A stretch of DNA of 24,916 nucleotides from Bacteroidota bacterium (GCA_018812245.1 JAHJDW010000132.1:1-24916), one strand, 5' to 3'; counted from the stretch's first letter, positions 2,876 to 8,852 are shown. Program-made: numbers and translations. Notes: generated by a model from the letters alone, not told the origin.

Positions 2876-2939
2876 TCAACTCAACGTTGCACGGGCAACA
2901 GTCACGATTTTACCGGCATGAAATAACTGAAGAATAAAA

Positions 2940-2996
2940 GTAGAGTCCAGATACTACAAAAAAAACGGGGCGGAATCGAAAAGCCAGAAGAGTAGG
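2940..2996 (+). repeat. Copy B of the conserved ~58-nt leader element, upstream of the 3012 gene
   Basis: GAGTCCAGATACTACAAAAAAAACGGGGCGGAATCGAAAAGCCAGAAGAGTAGG. Here the position matching the ATG of copy A reads AAG, and the element ends ~15 nt before the start codon. Coordinates may be off by 1. Confidence 0.5.
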
Positions 2997-3011
2997 AAAA
3001 AAAATGCTATT

Positions 3012-4901
3012 ATGAGAAAGTTTTTGCTTTTTGCTATGGGGCTCATCGCTTTTGAAATTGGAAATTCGCAAAGCCTAAAAACAATCACGGAGTATTGGAG
3101 CACCCTTAAACTTAAAGAGAAGTACACGGTAGTGACACAAGCACCTTACTACAAGCAAGGAAAATATGAGGCTTTTGATAGCGATGGGAATATTACTCAT
3201 TCACTTAACTACAACAAGGGGGTGCTTGATGGAGTTCAATATTTTTACCTTAACGATGAGGGTTCTCCTTCTTCTTACTCGTATTGTTCGCCAATTAGAA
3301 AACCAATGCACGTGTGGACATATAAAAATGGAGATAGGGTTGGAATACAGAAAGATTACACTTGCATGAACGGAAAATATTTTCTTTGGGTAGAAAAAAA
3401 CTGGGGAGAGAAAAACACTGCAACAAGGTATTTCTCGACTGGCAAGAAAATGTATGTAACCGAATGGATTGATAAAGCAGATAATGGAAGCGGTTCAGTA
3501 GAGTACTATTTTCCTAAAGGGAAATTGCGTGTGAAGTTCTCCTACAAATATGATGGCGAGACCTACAGCGGAAAATACTATGAATATTCTGAGCAAGGAG
3601 AGCTCATTATTGAAAGCAACTTTTCAGGCAAGAAGAATTGTTGGATAAATAACTTCACTGGTTATGACTTAGAGTACTTAACTGTTGGGACAAATAGAGA
3701 TGAGACAAAGTGGATTGGCGTCGATAATTGCAAAAGCTGTGAATCCTGTGAATATACGATCTTTGAGGACGGAATGAAGAATACAATGACTTACTCTTCT
3801 GGGGTTTTAATGTCATATCCAAATGGACAGAAAATGATAAGTGGAGATACGACATTTTTCGAAAATGGAAAGATAAAATCAATAGGCAAAACGCTATCTT
3901 TTTACGAGAATGGGAATAAAAAAGGGGATGGAGACACGACTTTCTACGAATCGGGTCAAGTTGAAACGATTGGGACAAAAATCAGCTATTACTTGAATGG
4001 TTCAAAAAGGCATCATAATGATACAACGTTCTACACAAATGGGAAAGTATCGACAATCGGAAAGGATATCAAGTTCTATGAGAATGGGAACCTGAAAACC
4101 GATGGCACCAACAAATTCTTCGAAAACGGGAAGCCCGAATACACTAAAGATGAATCCTATGAAAGAACATACAATGCGGATGGTCAATTAATTTCAGAAA
4201 CAAATCTGAGTACCGGTGAGTATTCCGTGAATTTCCCAAATGGAACAAGGAAAAAAATTGTAGTCTATAATAAAAAGGGCGAGATAAATGGATGGCTTCA
4301 GGAATTTGATGAAAATGGGAATTTTATTGAGTTCTCGTTTTATGTCGACGGTAAAAAACAAGATCTTACGATAAGTAATTTCTACGATGTCTTTAAGGAA
4401 GCCTTTGGGTCAATAAAAAAGAGTGAGTACATTTCTTATGGAAACAAACCATTAGAAACATACAAACCCCACAGCGAAACAAAACTCCTTTATTACAAAG
4501 GTGACATGTTGCTACAAAGCTACAAAGAGAAATATTCCACAGAAACATCAAAGCAAAAACGATTGCTATTATTAAAAGATGTCGTTTTCGCATGTAGTAA
4601 TTTGCTTGAGTTTGCAAAGAATTATACGGAATCAATGCAGCAGGAGTTGAAAAAAACGAAATCAATTGAGGATATTGAAGGATTTCTCAGTTACTACGAA
4701 AGTGTTTCAAACCAGATTGTTGAGGTAAACCAGAAGTATTCGTCTTTAATGACTGATAAGGCCAAAGCAGCCAAAATGAGTAAGGATGACTCCAAAAAAC
4801 TTGCGGGTGACATTAAACTGTATAATAAACTTTGCTCCAGCAAAAACAAATTGGATATGGGAATTGAACTCATCCAGCGAATTGAAAAACTATTAAATTG
4901 A
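3012..4901 (+). CDS. Secreted protein with MORN-variant / YwqK-like repeats and a helical C-terminal region
   Basis: 629 aa. N-terminal signal peptide MRKFLLFAMGLIAFEIGNSQS. Central repeated units FFENGKIKSIGK / FYENGNKKGDGDTTFYESGQVETIG / FYTNGKVSTIGKDIKFYENGNLKTDG, typical of the MORN-variant (YwqK-family) repeat. Lys/Glu-rich C-terminal third. Confidence 0.65.
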   Translation: MRKFLLFAMGLIAFEIGNSQSLKTITEYWSTLKLKEKYTVVTQAPYYKQGKYEAFDSDGNITHSLNYNKGVLDGVQYFYLNDEGSPSSYSYCSPIRKPMHVWTYKNGDRVGIQKDYTCMNGKYFLWVEKNWGEKNTATRYFSTGKKMYVTEWIDKADNGSGSVEYYFPKGKLRVKFSYKYDGETYSGKYYEYSEQGELIIESNFSGKKNCWINNFTGYDLEYLTVGTNRDETKWIGVDNCKSCESCEYTIFEDGMKNTMTYSSGVLMSYPNGQKMISGDTTFFENGKIKSIGKTLSFYENGNKKGDGDTTFYESGQVETIGTKISYYLNGSKRHHNDTTFYTNGKVSTIGKDIKFYENGNLKTDGTNKFFENGKPEYTKDESYERTYNADGQLISETNLSTGEYSVNFPNGTRKKIVVYNKKGEINGWLQEFDENGNFIEFSFYVDGKKQDLTISNFYDVFKEAFGSIKKSEYISYGNKPLETYKPHSETKLLYYKGDMLLQSYKEKYSTETSKQKRLLLLKDVVFACSNLLEFAKNYTESMQQELKKTKSIEDIEGFLSYYESVSNQIVEVNQKYSSLMTDKAKAAKMSKDDSKKLAGDIKLYNKLCSSKNKLDMGIELIQRIEKLLN

Positions 4902-4920
4902 AATCGAAATATTTTCAATT
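4896..4920 (+). terminator. Weak AT-rich hairpin (AATTGAAA-9nt-TTTCAATT) overlapping the stop codon, followed by a T-rich tract
   Basis: Perfect 8-bp inverted repeat seen directly. The stem is almost all A-T, so stability is low. Possible intrinsic terminator of the 3012-4901 gene. Confidence 0.2.
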
Positions 4921-5145
4921 TGAATCAAATTTGGTTGTATTTTTCAATGATGCCGAAAACGGGATTACCAGACGCGTCCATCCTATTCCGTCACACATTT
5001 CGCCTCCGCAATATTCCTGATTCGATACGGGTCACCGTATGCGACCGTGGAGGCTGTTTATTGATGAAAGTCAGCCACAGTTCACAATTCCGATTTGCAT
5101 TAATTTTCCATTGTGATTTTTGCTTGACATATTCTTTTCTTTTTC

Positions 5146-5153
5146 TACATTTG
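5146..5153 (+). promoter_or_regulatory. Candidate -7 promoter element TACATTTG for the SIR2-like cluster
   Basis: Matches TAnnTTTG. Lies 20 nt upstream of the ATG at 5174. A TTTG lies ~23 nt further upstream, slightly longer than the canonical spacing. Confidence 0.3.
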
Positions 5154-5173
5154 GACAAGCAAAAATTGACAAT

Positions 5174-6193
5174 ATGGAGATTTCCACAAAACCAGCGCCT
5201 CCCAAAATCACATATCTGCTTGGCGCGGGGGCAAGTGCGAACGCGCTGCCTATGGTTAAGGCATCTGGTTCCAACAAATCATTTCATGAATCACTCAGAA
5301 TGTTTGCGGCATCGCTTGAAAGCGAGCGCTCCACAGATGCCGACCTTTCTGAAATTCGGAACGAAATTGCAAAAGACGTCAGATGGCTTGCAGATGGGAC
5401 TGAAAAATTCAAGACTCCGGATACCTATGCCAAGTTTCTGTCATTGAAAGAAAAAAGCAATTTAGAGCGCCTCAAAGATGCACTATCATTCTTTTTTGTG
5501 TATGAGCAACTGGTAAACAAAAAGATAGATGATCGAGCTTTGGTGTTTTTGACGACAATTATGGAGTCAGCCGATTCAATTCCCGAAAACATTAAAATCC
5601 TGACGTGGAACTACGATTTCCAAATCCAACTGGCAGCTGAAGCATTTCGGAAGGAACAATTTAGCTTTAATCCATGTTCAAGCTCAATGGAGCACACAGA
5701 GCCGGTGATTGAATATCTGCCAAATCATGGGTTTCAGAATACTCAAACCGATAGAGTTTCCCTGGTTCATTTGAACGGAATAGCTGGTTTTTTTAATATG
5801 AGAAACCATGGCGTTAATAATAGCATATATAGCGTGTGTTATGAAAAGACCCATAATGAAGTACTAAAATTGGTCAACAGTTTTAATCATAGAGAACCAA
5901 ACCTACTTTCGTTTGCATGGGAGTCTGCTAATTCGGATACTGTCAAGATTGCAAAAGAAATTATTGAAGAAACCGAGATACTGGTAATTATTGGTTATTC
6001 ATTTCCGTTCTTCAACCGGGCCATAGACAAGCAAATATTTGAAACGCTCATGGCAAGTGGCAAGTTGAGGAAGATCTATTATCAAGACCCAAATAGAAAT
6101 GGGGAGTTTTTAATAAACCGATTTAATCTGGCTGGTGTTGACATAAAACACGAAAATGATACGGTCAACTATTACATTCCAATGGAACTCTGA
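5174..6193 (+). CDS. SIR2_2-family (sirtuin-like, NADase-fold) protein
   Basis: The ORF track starts at TTG 5120. The ATG at 5174 (MEISTK...) downstream of the -7 motif is the likelier start. Motifs in SIR2_2 order: ITYLLGAGASANALP (GAGxS...P nucleotide loop), ILTWNYDFQIQ (TTNYD-type catalytic N/D), SLVHLNGIAG (HLHG-type His), ILVIIGYSFPFFNRAID (GYS motif). About 340 aa, no other fused domain. Confidence 0.65.
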   Translation: MEISTKPAPPKITYLLGAGASANALPMVKASGSNKSFHESLRMFAASLESERSTDADLSEIRNEIAKDVRWLADGTEKFKTPDTYAKFLSLKEKSNLERLKDALSFFFVYEQLVNKKIDDRALVFLTTIMESADSIPENIKILTWNYDFQIQLAAEAFRKEQFSFNPCSSSMEHTEPVIEYLPNHGFQNTQTDRVSLVHLNGIAGFFNMRNHGVNNSIYSVCYEKTHNEVLKLVNSFNHREPNLLSFAWESANSDTVKIAKEIIEETEILVIIGYSFPFFNRAIDKQIFETLMASGKLRKIYYQDPNRNGEFLINRFNLAGVDIKHENDTVNYYIPMEL

Positions 6194-6214
6194 ATCACAA
6201 GCAACCATTATACT

Positions 6215-6457
6215 ATGATAACAAAGACAACGTCAATACCCCCGCATCCAGATTTCGTCGTGATATTCTCGTGTGATGTTTGTGGACAACGGTTGAATAT
6301 GGAACGAATCCCAACAGCGAATGCAGGCGCTGCATTCTCAAGCACTGTTGTCGAATGCCCCAACTGCAAAAAAGAGCAGCGGGTATATGCAGATATTGAC
6401 GGAAATGAACTGGTGATTGACTTCTCGGATATGGAAGAACTTGTCTTGGTGGTTTAA
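6215..6457 (+). CDS. Small zinc-ribbon protein (80 aa)
   Basis: Two Cys pairs, CDVC (res 21-24) and CPNC (res 48-51), typical of a Zn-ribbon. Starts 21 nt after the SIR2-like gene. Confidence 0.5.
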   Translation: MITKTTSIPPHPDFVVIFSCDVCGQRLNMERIPTANAGAAFSSTVVECPNCKKEQRVYADIDGNELVIDFSDMEELVLVV

Positions 6458-6510
6458 TCGTGGATTATGAATGAGTCGCGAATATTCACTCATAGGTATC
6501 ATAATAGATA

Positions 6511-7284
6511 ATGAAGGAATTACTAAAAAAATGTGATAGAATATACAGGGAATTGCCGTGTTGTCACAGCGATGGTCGTACCTGTAACTGCTATTCTTGT
6601 CTCTGCAATGAATACTTCAATACTGCTGACACCTATGAATGCAAAAAAAAGCTATCCTTTTATGTCTTAAAGTATGCTCCATCATTCTCCACCGAACTTT
6701 ACCATTACTTGGTCAAATCGAAGATTCTTGATAGATTCAATAACGAGGAGCTAAATATTCTGTCCATTGGATGTGGTTGTTGTCATGATTTGTACTGTAT
6801 TGCCTTCTATATCAAACAGAGGAATCTCAATATTAATCTCTCATACACAGGCATTGATAAAAGCACTCAATGGGAACAGTTATATTCCCAAGATGCTGTC
6901 TATTTGCAACAAGATGTAGTAAAAGAATGCGATCTGAAAGGATTTGATATTATCTTTATTAACAAAGTTTTCTCAACTTTATATGAAAACAAACATGACA
7001 AACCATTTCTAGACAAGCTCACTGAGGCAATCGACAGGGATATGATATTCGATGCCTACCTTGTTTTCGTTGATGTAAACAGTAAATTCAAAGGGCGTGA
7101 TAAATTCAATGGAGCTGTAGCTAAAAAATTTAATCAGGAAACCAAATACTATTTTGATGGGTATAGTGGCGGAACAGGGAGCAATTGGATTCATCTTGGT
7201 CAAAAGAATGTTCCAAAGGGTGAGTATTTTAGGAGCCTATCGGTCAAACCAATAATGGAGACAAAAAAAAACAGTTATTTTTGA
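6511..7284 (+). CDS. Class I SAM-dependent methyltransferase with a Cys-rich N-terminal extension
   Basis: 257 aa. Motif I-like LSIGCGCCHD, post-I acidic residue (YTGIDKS), motif II-like GFDIIFINKVFS. N-terminal 45 aa carry 8 Cys plus a His (CCHSDGRTCNCYSCLC...EC), suggesting a metal-binding module. Confidence 0.55.
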   Translation: MKELLKKCDRIYRELPCCHSDGRTCNCYSCLCNEYFNTADTYECKKKLSFYVLKYAPSFSTELYHYLVKSKILDRFNNEELNILSIGCGCCHDLYCIAFYIKQRNLNINLSYTGIDKSTQWEQLYSQDAVYLQQDVVKECDLKGFDIIFINKVFSTLYENKHDKPFLDKLTEAIDRDMIFDAYLVFVDVNSKFKGRDKFNGAVAKKFNQETKYYFDGYSGGTGSNWIHLGQKNVPKGEYFRSLSVKPIMETKKNSYF

Positions 7285-7300
7285 ATACAGGAAATAAGTT

Positions 7301-8233
7301 ATGATTATTAGCGCGAGCAGAAGGACGGATATTCCGGCATTTTTCAGCGATTGGTTTTACAACAACCTTGGTCGGGGGTATTTCTTGGTGAGGAATCCCA
7401 TGAATATTCACCAAATCAGTCAAATAAACATTTCGCCAAGTACGGTTGACTGTTTTGTTTTCTGGACAAAAAACCCCGAACCATTTCTCCGAAGGATTAA
7501 AGAACTAAACGGCTACAAGTACTATTTTCAATATACGGTTACCGGGTATGGAAGGTCACTTGAACCGAACGTTCCATCAATGGAAAGCACAATTCAGACA
7601 TTCATTTCATTGTCAAAATCAATTGGCCCGAAACGCGTAATCTGGAGATACGACCCAATATTGCTTTCAAATAAATTTGACATGGAATTTCATGTGTCGA
7701 ATTTTACGAATATTGCGGGTAAACTATCTGGTCATACAAAAAGGTGTGTAATCAGCTTCGTTGACTTCTACAAAAAGACAATCCGAAACCTTTCAGGGAT
7801 AGATTATGATGATATATCCCAATATCAGATTGACGCTCTTGTAAAAAACCTTAGCGAAATAGCCCGCAGTCATAACATTGAATTAGTAACCTGCGCGGAG
7901 GATATTGACCTGCGCCGCTATAATGTGAATCAAGGAAAGTGCATTGACGAAAAACTAATAGAAGAGTTTACAGGATTTTCATTGAAGATAAAAAAAGACG
8001 CCAATCAGCGCCAGGAATGCGGTTGTGCGGCGAGCATAGATATTGGCGCGTACAATACCTGCCCCCATAGTTGTTTATATTGTTATGCCAATTTTGATTT
8101 GCGACAGGTTCGCGAGAACTACGAGCAGCATGACGAACACTCAGGACTCCTTTTCGGAAGCGTTGGGTCGAAGGATACAATTCGTCAAAGGAAAATGCTT
8201 AGTTGTAAAAACATTCAACAAAAACTCCTATAG
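7301..8233 (+). CDS. DUF1848-like protein with a C-terminal cysteine cluster (putative Fe-S/metal-binding)
   Basis: 310 aa. The N-terminus MIISASRRTDIPAFF matches my recollection of the DUF1848 (PF08902) signature. C-terminal cluster ECGCAASIDIGAYNTCPHSCLYCYAN. Starts 16 nt after the methyltransferase stop. Confidence 0.55.
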   Translation: MIISASRRTDIPAFFSDWFYNNLGRGYFLVRNPMNIHQISQINISPSTVDCFVFWTKNPEPFLRRIKELNGYKYYFQYTVTGYGRSLEPNVPSMESTIQTFISLSKSIGPKRVIWRYDPILLSNKFDMEFHVSNFTNIAGKLSGHTKRCVISFVDFYKKTIRNLSGIDYDDISQYQIDALVKNLSEIARSHNIELVTCAEDIDLRRYNVNQGKCIDEKLIEEFTGFSLKIKKDANQRQECGCAASIDIGAYNTCPHSCLYCYANFDLRQVRENYEQHDEHSGLLFGSVGSKDTIRQRKMLSCKNIQQKLL

Positions 8234-8764: not shown

Positions 8765-8778
8765 TTGATTTTCAACCG

Positions 8779-8852
8779 TCGGGGTGAGAAGACTCGAACT
8801 TCCGGCCCCTTGCACCCCATGCAAGTACGCTAGCCAACTGCGCCACACCCCG
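8779..8852 (-). tRNA. tRNA-Pro (anticodon GGG)
   Basis: Reverse complement CGGGGTGTGGCGCAGTTGGCTAGCGTACTTGCATGGGGTGCAAGGGGCCGGAAGTTCGAGTCTTCTCACCCCGA. Has a 7-bp acceptor stem (CGGGGTG/CACCCCG), D-arm GCGCAGTTGGCTAGCGT, anticodon stem CTTGC/GCAAG with loop ATGGGGT (U33, G37), and T-arm GGAAGTTCGAGTCTTCT. Closely resembles E. coli tRNA-Pro. No 3' CCA is encoded. Ends are +/-2 nt. Confidence 0.85.

Follow-up and report, generated by a model that had tools for sequence, protein, structure and literature searches.

We analysed a stretch of 24,916 nucleotides (nt), a complete contig from a Bacteroidetes metagenome-assembled genome (Bacteroidota bacterium, GCA_018812245.1, contig JAHJDW010000132.1, locus tags KKD31_07685 onward), hereafter the window, which carries a run of four co-directional genes that we call g1 to g4. 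The first, g1 (5174..6193, +), encodes a protein of 339 amino acids (aa) with a predicted SIR2 fold; its GenBank start is the ATG at 5174, upstream of which the frame stays open as far as a TTG at 5120. The gene is followed by g2 (6215..6457, +), an 80-aa open reading frame (ORF) for a putative CxxC...CxxC zinc ribbon, by g3 (6511..7284, +), which probably encodes a divergent class I S-adenosylmethionine (SAM) methyltransferase with an N-terminal cysteine (Cys) cluster, and by g4 (7301..8233, +), which encodes a DUF1848 protein predicted to form a radical-SAM-like partial barrel. The ORFs are separated by 21, 53 and 16 nt, in agreement with an earlier note on this DNA that had proposed a single nicotinamide adenine dinucleotide (NAD)-linked system made of all four genes. 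Our analysis points instead to a conserved g3–g4 pair, which in this genome lies next to a solitary SIR2 gene and an orphan zinc ribbon.

The earlier note had also placed one candidate promoter in front of the run. A TAnnTTTG-type Bacteroidetes -7 element, TACATTTG (5146..5153, +), lies 21 nt 5' of the g1 ATG and fits this proposal by its position, but the motif is found in the window about as often as chance predicts (25 found, 24 expected), so that only the position is suggestive. We infer from it that TACATTTG is a candidate promoter for the entire g1–g4 run. The g2–g3 gap contains no TAnnTTTG motif, and the four genes are probably co-transcribed here as one transcription unit. A sigma-70-like TTGACA-16-TACATT site is present at 5124-5151; the sigma-70 and terminator scans gave results near chance and are uninformative for Bacteroidetes.

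The methyltransferase gene is coupled to the DUF1848 gene

We collected 80 metagenome loci encoding close relatives of g4 (46-59% identity), 68 of which include 900 bp or more of upstream DNA. In 39 of these 68 loci (38 when a hidden Markov model (HMM) was used), the gene directly upstream of DUF1848, on the same strand, encodes a g3 homologue, a Cys-rich methyltransferase of about 297 aa; the other 29 lack it in this position. The two genes are typically spaced by -4 to +5 nt and often share a 4-nt overlap. The reverse approach, starting from members of the methyltransferase family, gave DUF1848 directly downstream on all nine contigs for which DNA was available, and two further contigs show an abutting downstream gene. 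Thus, the methyltransferase was coupled to DUF1848 in every case examined, while DUF1848 does not always come with the methyltransferase. We are very confident that g3 and g4 form a functional unit, and found no paper describing such a pair in the literature searched.

The pair is also carried by phages and other mobile elements. DUF1848 was found on 59 of the viral contigs in IMG/VR, and the methyltransferase lies upstream in 17 of these, within a few nt in 15. The two genes are adjacent in phage record MT836297, they come right after a phage terminase gene on one of the nine contigs mentioned above (L232), and at another locus (L101) they lie inside a VapE-type mobile element. Integrases, relaxases and serine recombinases occur near the pair in the metagenome loci. 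The outer flanks are very diverse, with 157 Pfam families in 129 genes, the commonest of which, NUDIX, appears four times. The flanks hold no conserved precursor or other biosynthetic gene, and we rejected a cluster for a ribosomally synthesized and post-translationally modified peptide or another natural product.

A different arrangement was seen on 28 gut-phage contigs (L186-L213), where a 156-aa protein of unknown function and a short DUF1848 protein (about 278 aa) are followed in a string by SAM-synthetase-N-like and ParB_N genes. The 264-aa SAM-synthetase-N-like protein was found in 13 of these loci and ParB_N in 26, and none of them carries the methyltransferase.

Features of the methyltransferase and of the DUF1848 protein

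The description of g3 as a class I methyltransferase with a Cys-rich N-terminus held up. Its Pfam matches (CheR, Methyltransf_12, Methyltransf_31, Methyltransf_23) are all below threshold, and the PADLOC model C3a159, labelled 'methyl transferase', matches g3 at E 9.8e-11 and all 39 sampled members of its family (best E 4.6e-20). The family conserves motif I, LSLGCGxxxD, and the N-terminal cluster CCH...C.C..C...C, as well as the motifs NK(L/V)FST and F.D.N...GRD. A profile search of the PDB with the g3 family returned only the methyltransferase 3mgg, at E 0.21. Taken together, g3 appears to be a divergent class I SAM methyltransferase. A word-indexed homologue search with g3 found two proteins, and exhaustive HMMER was required to define the family: among 1.84 billion sequences it yielded 279 representatives at E ≤ 1e-3, corresponding to 279 clusters at 50% identity, for which there is no Pfam model. 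A scan of viral contigs with the methyltransferase alignment found no close relative.

The assignment of g4 is clear, as the earlier note had stated: Pfam DUF1848 (PF08902) matches it with 364.1 bits against a cut-off of 30.5 (E 7e-109), over positions 1-262 of the 262 in the profile. Eight Cys are invariant in 29 relatives of g4, including C254-x3-C258-x2-C261 (CX3CX2C) near the C-terminus; the five others would suffice for an auxiliary cluster. The structural model of DUF1848 resembles radical SAM enzymes and contains a partial TIM barrel, although with a modest fit, closely followed by generic TIM barrels. Pfam Radical_SAM (PF04055) gave no match to g4 at E ≤ 1, and the radical SAM matches from NCBIfam cover the Cys motif only (E 0.035-0.07). 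On the basis of the model, the most fitting description of g4 is a radical-SAM-like barrel with the cluster loop shifted to the C-terminus. Searches of the PDB gave no useful sequence matches for g3, g4 or the family profiles, and an exact look-up of the g4 sequence returned no record. The PADLOC model for DUF1848 proteins associated with reverse transcriptases (RTs) matches g4 at 5e-51. The DUF1848 family is large and comprises over 8000 clusters at 90% identity; the literature searched contained no functional study of it and no mention of PF08902 or IPR014998, and nothing relevant was found on permuted radical SAM enzymes. We rejected a role for DUF1848 as a restriction endonuclease, as it has no nuclease-like fold and its methyltransferase is often absent.

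The SIR2-fold protein and the zinc ribbon

No Pfam family matched g1 at E ≤ 1, and the PADLOC 'SIR2' model matched it at E 0.0035. An AlphaFold2 model built from an alignment of 28 sequences had a predicted local distance difference test score of 88 and a predicted template modelling score of 0.89. When compared with the PDB using Foldseek, this model retrieved CobB, PfSir2A, Sir2Af2 and ThsA (best E 1.9e-5), and the predicted structure shows the Rossmann-type NAD-binding fold of sirtuins. The closest solved relatives are the SIR2 subunits of SIR2-HerA (PDB 8w9l, 8yhx, 8j4u), which consume NAD, at 14-15% identity. SIR2_2 (PF13289) is the sole recurrent Pfam family among 39 relatives of g1, 12 of which match it below threshold (best 21.2 bits against a gathering score of 24.5). 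The SIR2 fold and the likeness to SIR2_2 thus stand, but the SIR2_2 assignment of the earlier note does not reach the Pfam threshold for g1 itself. We conclude that g1 is a genuine but very divergent SIR2_2-like protein; its family, found mainly in Bacteroidota, has no model of its own. The proteins are 330-360 aa long, and g1 consists of a single SIR2 domain.

The claim that g1 has all catalytic landmarks of SIR2 proteins was overstated. Across 79 family members, GAGAS, WNYD (WN.D), xxNG and GYS(F) are invariant or nearly so, and the Asn and Gly of HLNG are invariant, but the His of this motif (H199 in g1) varies: 47 members have H there, 28 have K and four have Q. Judged from this alignment, the canonical catalytic His of sirtuins is not a conserved feature of the family. 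Going by the xHG motif of sirtuins and the K-L/I-H-G motif of SIR2_2, the HLNG Asn may occupy the usual site of the catalytic His.

We then examined 80 genomes, mostly of Bacteroidota, that encode relatives of g1 at 30-48% identity, taking 8 kb on each side. Neither tblastn nor the family HMMs detected a homologue of g3 or g4 in any of the 80 loci. tblastn with g2 found nothing either, and phmmer gave one weak match (E 0.021) at locus L021, which is the lone small CxxC ORF downstream of a g1 homologue in 76 informative loci. Clustering of the neighbouring genes revealed no conserved partner. The sole recurrent neighbourhood, a local synteny of a short-chain dehydrogenase, the g1 homologue and a SLFN_AlbA_2/DUF5929 protein, was seen in Flavobacteriaceae (L061, L066, L069, L072, L075, L077), where common descent is the probable cause. 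Among 145 flanking genes, a Pfam census showed scattered restriction-modification genes of the Eco57I, MmeI and TaqI types, AbiH, TIR_2 (two of the 145 genes), SEFIR, HNH and integrases. The g1 family is therefore solitary and often sits in variable regions. Its only matches in the phage database were LE1-like phages of Leptospira (KF114879, KX656785, KF114880), which encode distant homologues annotated as hypothetical (28% identity over 87% of the protein). In the plasmid database PLSDB, g1, g2 and g3 had no match.

The description of g2 as an 80-aa zinc ribbon also stands, with Pfam matches to zinc-ribbon families that all fall below threshold (best E 1.7e-4). No small CxxC ORF was found upstream of the methyltransferase–DUF1848 pair in any of 38 loci. 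On contig L224 (100-318, +), a 72-aa CxxC...CxxC ORF lies 155 nt 5' of a close g3 relative (P0244); it has the same architecture as g2 and marginal similarity to it (BLASTP E 0.021), and is the sole hint of recurrence beside the methyltransferase. As far as these searches reach, g2 is a lineage-specific ORF that recurs once or twice at most, and not a conserved partner of g1 or of g3–g4.

Surroundings of the cluster

The earlier note had described an AT-rich, tRNA-flanked region resembling a defence island. The GC content is 0.36-0.40 inside the cluster and 0.35-0.47 in the rest of the window, so that the cluster is only slightly low. On the 3' side, g4 is followed by a 62-aa ORF and then by a single tRNA gene, tRNA-Pro(GGG) (8778..8852, -), which lies 545 nt 3' of g4 and borders a housekeeping acyl-CoA carboxylase operon. 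The window contains no att-like second copy of the tRNA 3' end, and its annotated part (ORFs annotated to 13.9 kb) contains no integrase and no other defence genes. A tRNA-flanked defence island is thus not established.

The intergenic stretch 5' of g1 (4902-5173, 272 nt) has a GC-richer core at about 4950-5060 and no Rfam match; a 175-aa ORF that overlaps it (4920-5447) is probably spurious. Both the regulator of the XRE type and the kinase module noted previously are present, upstream of the cluster. At 226-2483 on the minus strand, a Ser/Thr protein kinase gene (Pkinase, 1.8e-35) and a 184-aa ORF of unknown function overlap by one base, and a 94-aa XRE-like helix-turn-helix ORF adjoins them. 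These three genes at the contig end may be a separate regulatory or conflict module. Two DUF805 RNA motifs (Rfam RF03081; 72 and 80 bits, gathering score 51) lie on the plus strand, the first (2564-2633) overlapping the start of an 85-aa ORF at 2618 and the second (2935-3002) just 5' of a MORN-repeat gene at 3012.

Discussion

With moderate confidence, we favour the interpretation that the locus is composite and consists of a SAM-linked pair (g3–g4), a solitary SIR2 gene (g1) and an orphan zinc ribbon (g2). That these are independent accessory genes and not one system is a conclusion in which our confidence is high. The pair is a conserved, translationally coupled two-gene module, and its products would modify their substrate in two SAM-dependent steps. 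The step made by DUF1848 would depend on its cluster and would probably be radical, presumably with cleavage of SAM, and the methyltransferase would then add a methyl group or cap with one. We suggest a SAM-centred two-step modification on mobile DNA because of the radical-SAM-like fold, the Cys motifs, the translational coupling, the self-contained mobility and the carriage by phages. Since the recurring partners of DUF1848 are either the methyltransferase or a phage SAM-synthetase-like gene, SAM and not NAD would be at the centre of this chemistry. The substrate would most likely be nucleic acid, probably the DNA of whichever host, mobile element or phage has the two genes, and the role could be self-marking or protection in phage–host conflict; that the pair modifies nucleic acid, with DNA as the likeliest kind, we propose only tentatively. 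The product of g1 probably binds NAD and acts alone as an NADase or ADP-ribosyltransferase. Its family sits alone in variable regions, sometimes beside restriction-modification, AbiH or TIR genes.

Several observations weigh against this interpretation. The four genes are co-directional and tightly spaced, with a single plausible promoter 5' of g1, and their co-expression is likely in this genome. The g3 sequence contains neither a DPPY-type motif ((D/N/S)PP(Y/F/W)) nor the PCQ/ENV motifs of DNA methyltransferases. At many loci the pair is flanked by ordinary housekeeping genes (such as MetH, EF-G, EF-Tu), and we infer, and do not observe, the SAM cleavage, the nucleic-acid substrate and the phage role. 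There are also residual links to NAD and ADP-ribose. On the Roseburia sp. 831b plasmid NZ_CP135163 (L161, 3322-5942), genes for a protein-ADP-ribose hydrolase, a Sir2-family protein and DUF1848 follow one another on the same strand, 3' of a 4Fe-4S protein gene and an ACGX radical SAM/SPASM cluster. This Sir2 reads 'TQGDYG' in place of the sirtuin HG motif, which is typical of ADP-ribosylating SirTM sirtuins. At L101, the pair has a g1 homologue 6 kb downstream, with an HNH protein and DUF6169 encoded in between. Finally, where DUF1848 has no methyltransferase, some of the genes directly before it are linked to ADP-ribose. The genes in this position, each seen at single loci (L144, L156, L136/L149, L148, L154, L088, L138), comprise Macro, ADP-ribosylglycohydrolase with DUF1643, NUDIX, HhH-GPD glycosylase, HD_4 and RloB, and on a Planktothrix plasmid (L162) AlkB is encoded two genes from DUF1848. 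Such neighbours may indicate a repair or ADP-ribose theme. The NAD-linked cases are too few to establish a link.

The spacing and the candidate promoter, the structural likeness of g1 to defence SIR2 NADases, the Sir2 gene directly before DUF1848 on NZ_CP135163, the mobile region shared by a g1 homologue and the pair at L101, and the ADP-ribose-processing genes that adjoin some DUF1848 genes could all be accommodated by the system of the earlier note, in which all four genes act together, SIR2 being an NAD-depleting or ADP-ribosylating effector and the other products sensor or modification partners. This would require the genes to recur together, and they do not: g3 and g4 are absent from all 80 g1 loci, where one weak g2-like ORF was seen, the zinc ribbon is missing from all 38 methyltransferase–DUF1848 loci, and 139 DUF1848 loci contain one g1-family gene, the distal one at L101, and no homologue of the Roseburia Sir2. 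The pair is widespread without any SIR2. The four-gene system is thus largely refuted by missing co-occurrence, an outcome that the earlier note had itself named as a refutation, and we regard it as very improbable. The note had coupled this outcome with a housekeeping pathway for each gene; this alternative is unsupported as well, since what surrounds the pair varies greatly and often derives from mobile elements or phages. Alternatively, two or three anti-phage systems could be stacked in a defence island, with g1 (with or without g2) acting as a SIR2 NADase in abortive infection and g3–g4 resembling restriction-modification, the methyltransferase marking self and DUF1848 damaging unmarked nucleic acid. 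The restriction-modification, AbiH, TIR_2, SEFIR, HNH and integrase genes flanking g1 relatives would fit, as would the variable, mobile contexts and the matches of g3 and g4 to PADLOC models from studies of defence neighbourhoods. However, phages carry the pair, beside terminase or with ParB_N and SAM-synthetase-like genes; DUF1848 lacks a nuclease-like fold and occurs without the methyltransferase in 29 of 68 loci, which would be lethal for a toxic restriction component; the annotated part of the window has no integrase or other defence genes; and in the g1 family the catalytic His varies. We consider this stacking of systems unlikely. The pair could also modify or repair RNA (rRNA or tRNA) or a small molecule, for instance as a mobile Cfr-like resistance determinant or a damage-repair enzyme, with no part in phage conflict. 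Here, g3 resembles generic class I methyltransferases (Methyltransf_31, 12, 23) more than DNA methyltransferases, methyltransferase-free DUF1848 lies beside HhH-GPD glycosylase, AlkB, Macro, NUDIX and ADP-ribosylglycohydrolase, and some flanks are housekeeping genes. What argues against it is the lack of conserved synteny with translation or repair operons, none of the 157 Pfam families in the 129 flanking genes occurring more than four times, and the presence of the pair in phage genomes with ParB_N and SAM-synthetase-like genes. An RNA or small-molecule role therefore seems quite improbable to us, though less so than the four-gene system.

A further step from the composite locus that we favour would be to regard the pair as an undescribed, self-contained phage–host conflict system of bacteria, mobile elements and phages. 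It would install or remove a non-canonical nucleic-acid modification by means of a radical-SAM-like cluster anchored at the C-terminus, with methyl transfer as the next step, and the adjacent His-variable SIR2 protein would add an NAD or ADP-ribose layer in this lineage. The Macro, ADP-ribosylglycohydrolase, NUDIX and SirTM genes found here and there beside other DUF1848 genes hint at such a layer. This extension is speculative, and on balance somewhat unlikely.

These results remove a false lead, as a SIR2–methyltransferase–DUF1848 'system' would rest on a single juxtaposition. The truly conserved unit is the methyltransferase–DUF1848 pair, which could plausibly provide new chemistry of nucleic-acid modification or a conflict system, and for which carriage by phages, including one phage variant with a SAM-synthetase-like gene in place of the methyltransferase, is the main clue. 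The g1 family offers a compact, solitary SIR2 fold that could be useful for understanding the control of small SIR2 proteins that have no partner.

Comparison with known systems

As the earlier note had stated, the combination of the four genes does not correspond to a described system. The g1 protein is structurally similar to the SIR2 subunit of SIR2-HerA (Nezha), but the identity is low, the His of HLNG is not conserved in its family and the 80 loci show no conserved neighbour. A gene for a HerA-type ATPase was found neither in the window nor among the top 25 Pfam families of the 145 genes flanking g1 relatives. Thoeris combines ThsA, with a SLOG or sensor part, and the TIR protein ThsB, whereas g1 has a single domain and the cluster has no TIR gene. 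DSR1 and DSR2 are proteins of about 1000 aa in which SIR2 is joined to a large sensor region, and g1, with its 339 aa, has no such region; unlike the SIR2-STAND protein Avs5, it also lacks a STAND domain. We rejected membership of g1 in Thoeris, SIR2-HerA, DSR and SPARSA because the partners or domains are absent. With regard to operons of SirTM and a macrodomain protein, the Roseburia arrangement of Sir2, hydrolase and DUF1848 is a single occurrence, g1 has no sequence match to that Sir2, and the window contains no macrodomain gene.

The pair differs from radical SAM enzymes that act on nucleic acids or use two SAMs. In spore photoproduct lyase, RlmN/Cfr and class C methylases the Cys motif follows strand 1, whereas in g4 it is C-terminal, and the methyltransferase of the pair is a separate class I protein. 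The likeness of g4 to these enzymes is a predicted one, with no match to Pfam Radical_SAM. C3a159 was defined as a candidate accessory of type III CRISPR-cas cassettes on the strength of three occurrences beside type III cas genes (Shah et al. 2019, PMC6546367). The g3 family matches this model, but the annotated part of the window shows no cas genes near g3. A parallel to the pair is UG25, a class 1 UG/Abi RT with an N-terminal methyltransferase fusion, for which DUF1848 is a reported partner (Mestre et al. 2022, PMC9226505), and which thus shares the combination of methyltransferase and DUF1848 with g3–g4. Unlike the UG25 methyltransferase, g3 is free-standing; it matches no PADLOC RT model, and no RT-sized ORF or RT match was found in or beside the cluster. 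The two methyltransferases are compared here by activity and not by homology. With UG25, both activities turn up together again, this time in a setting associated with defence.

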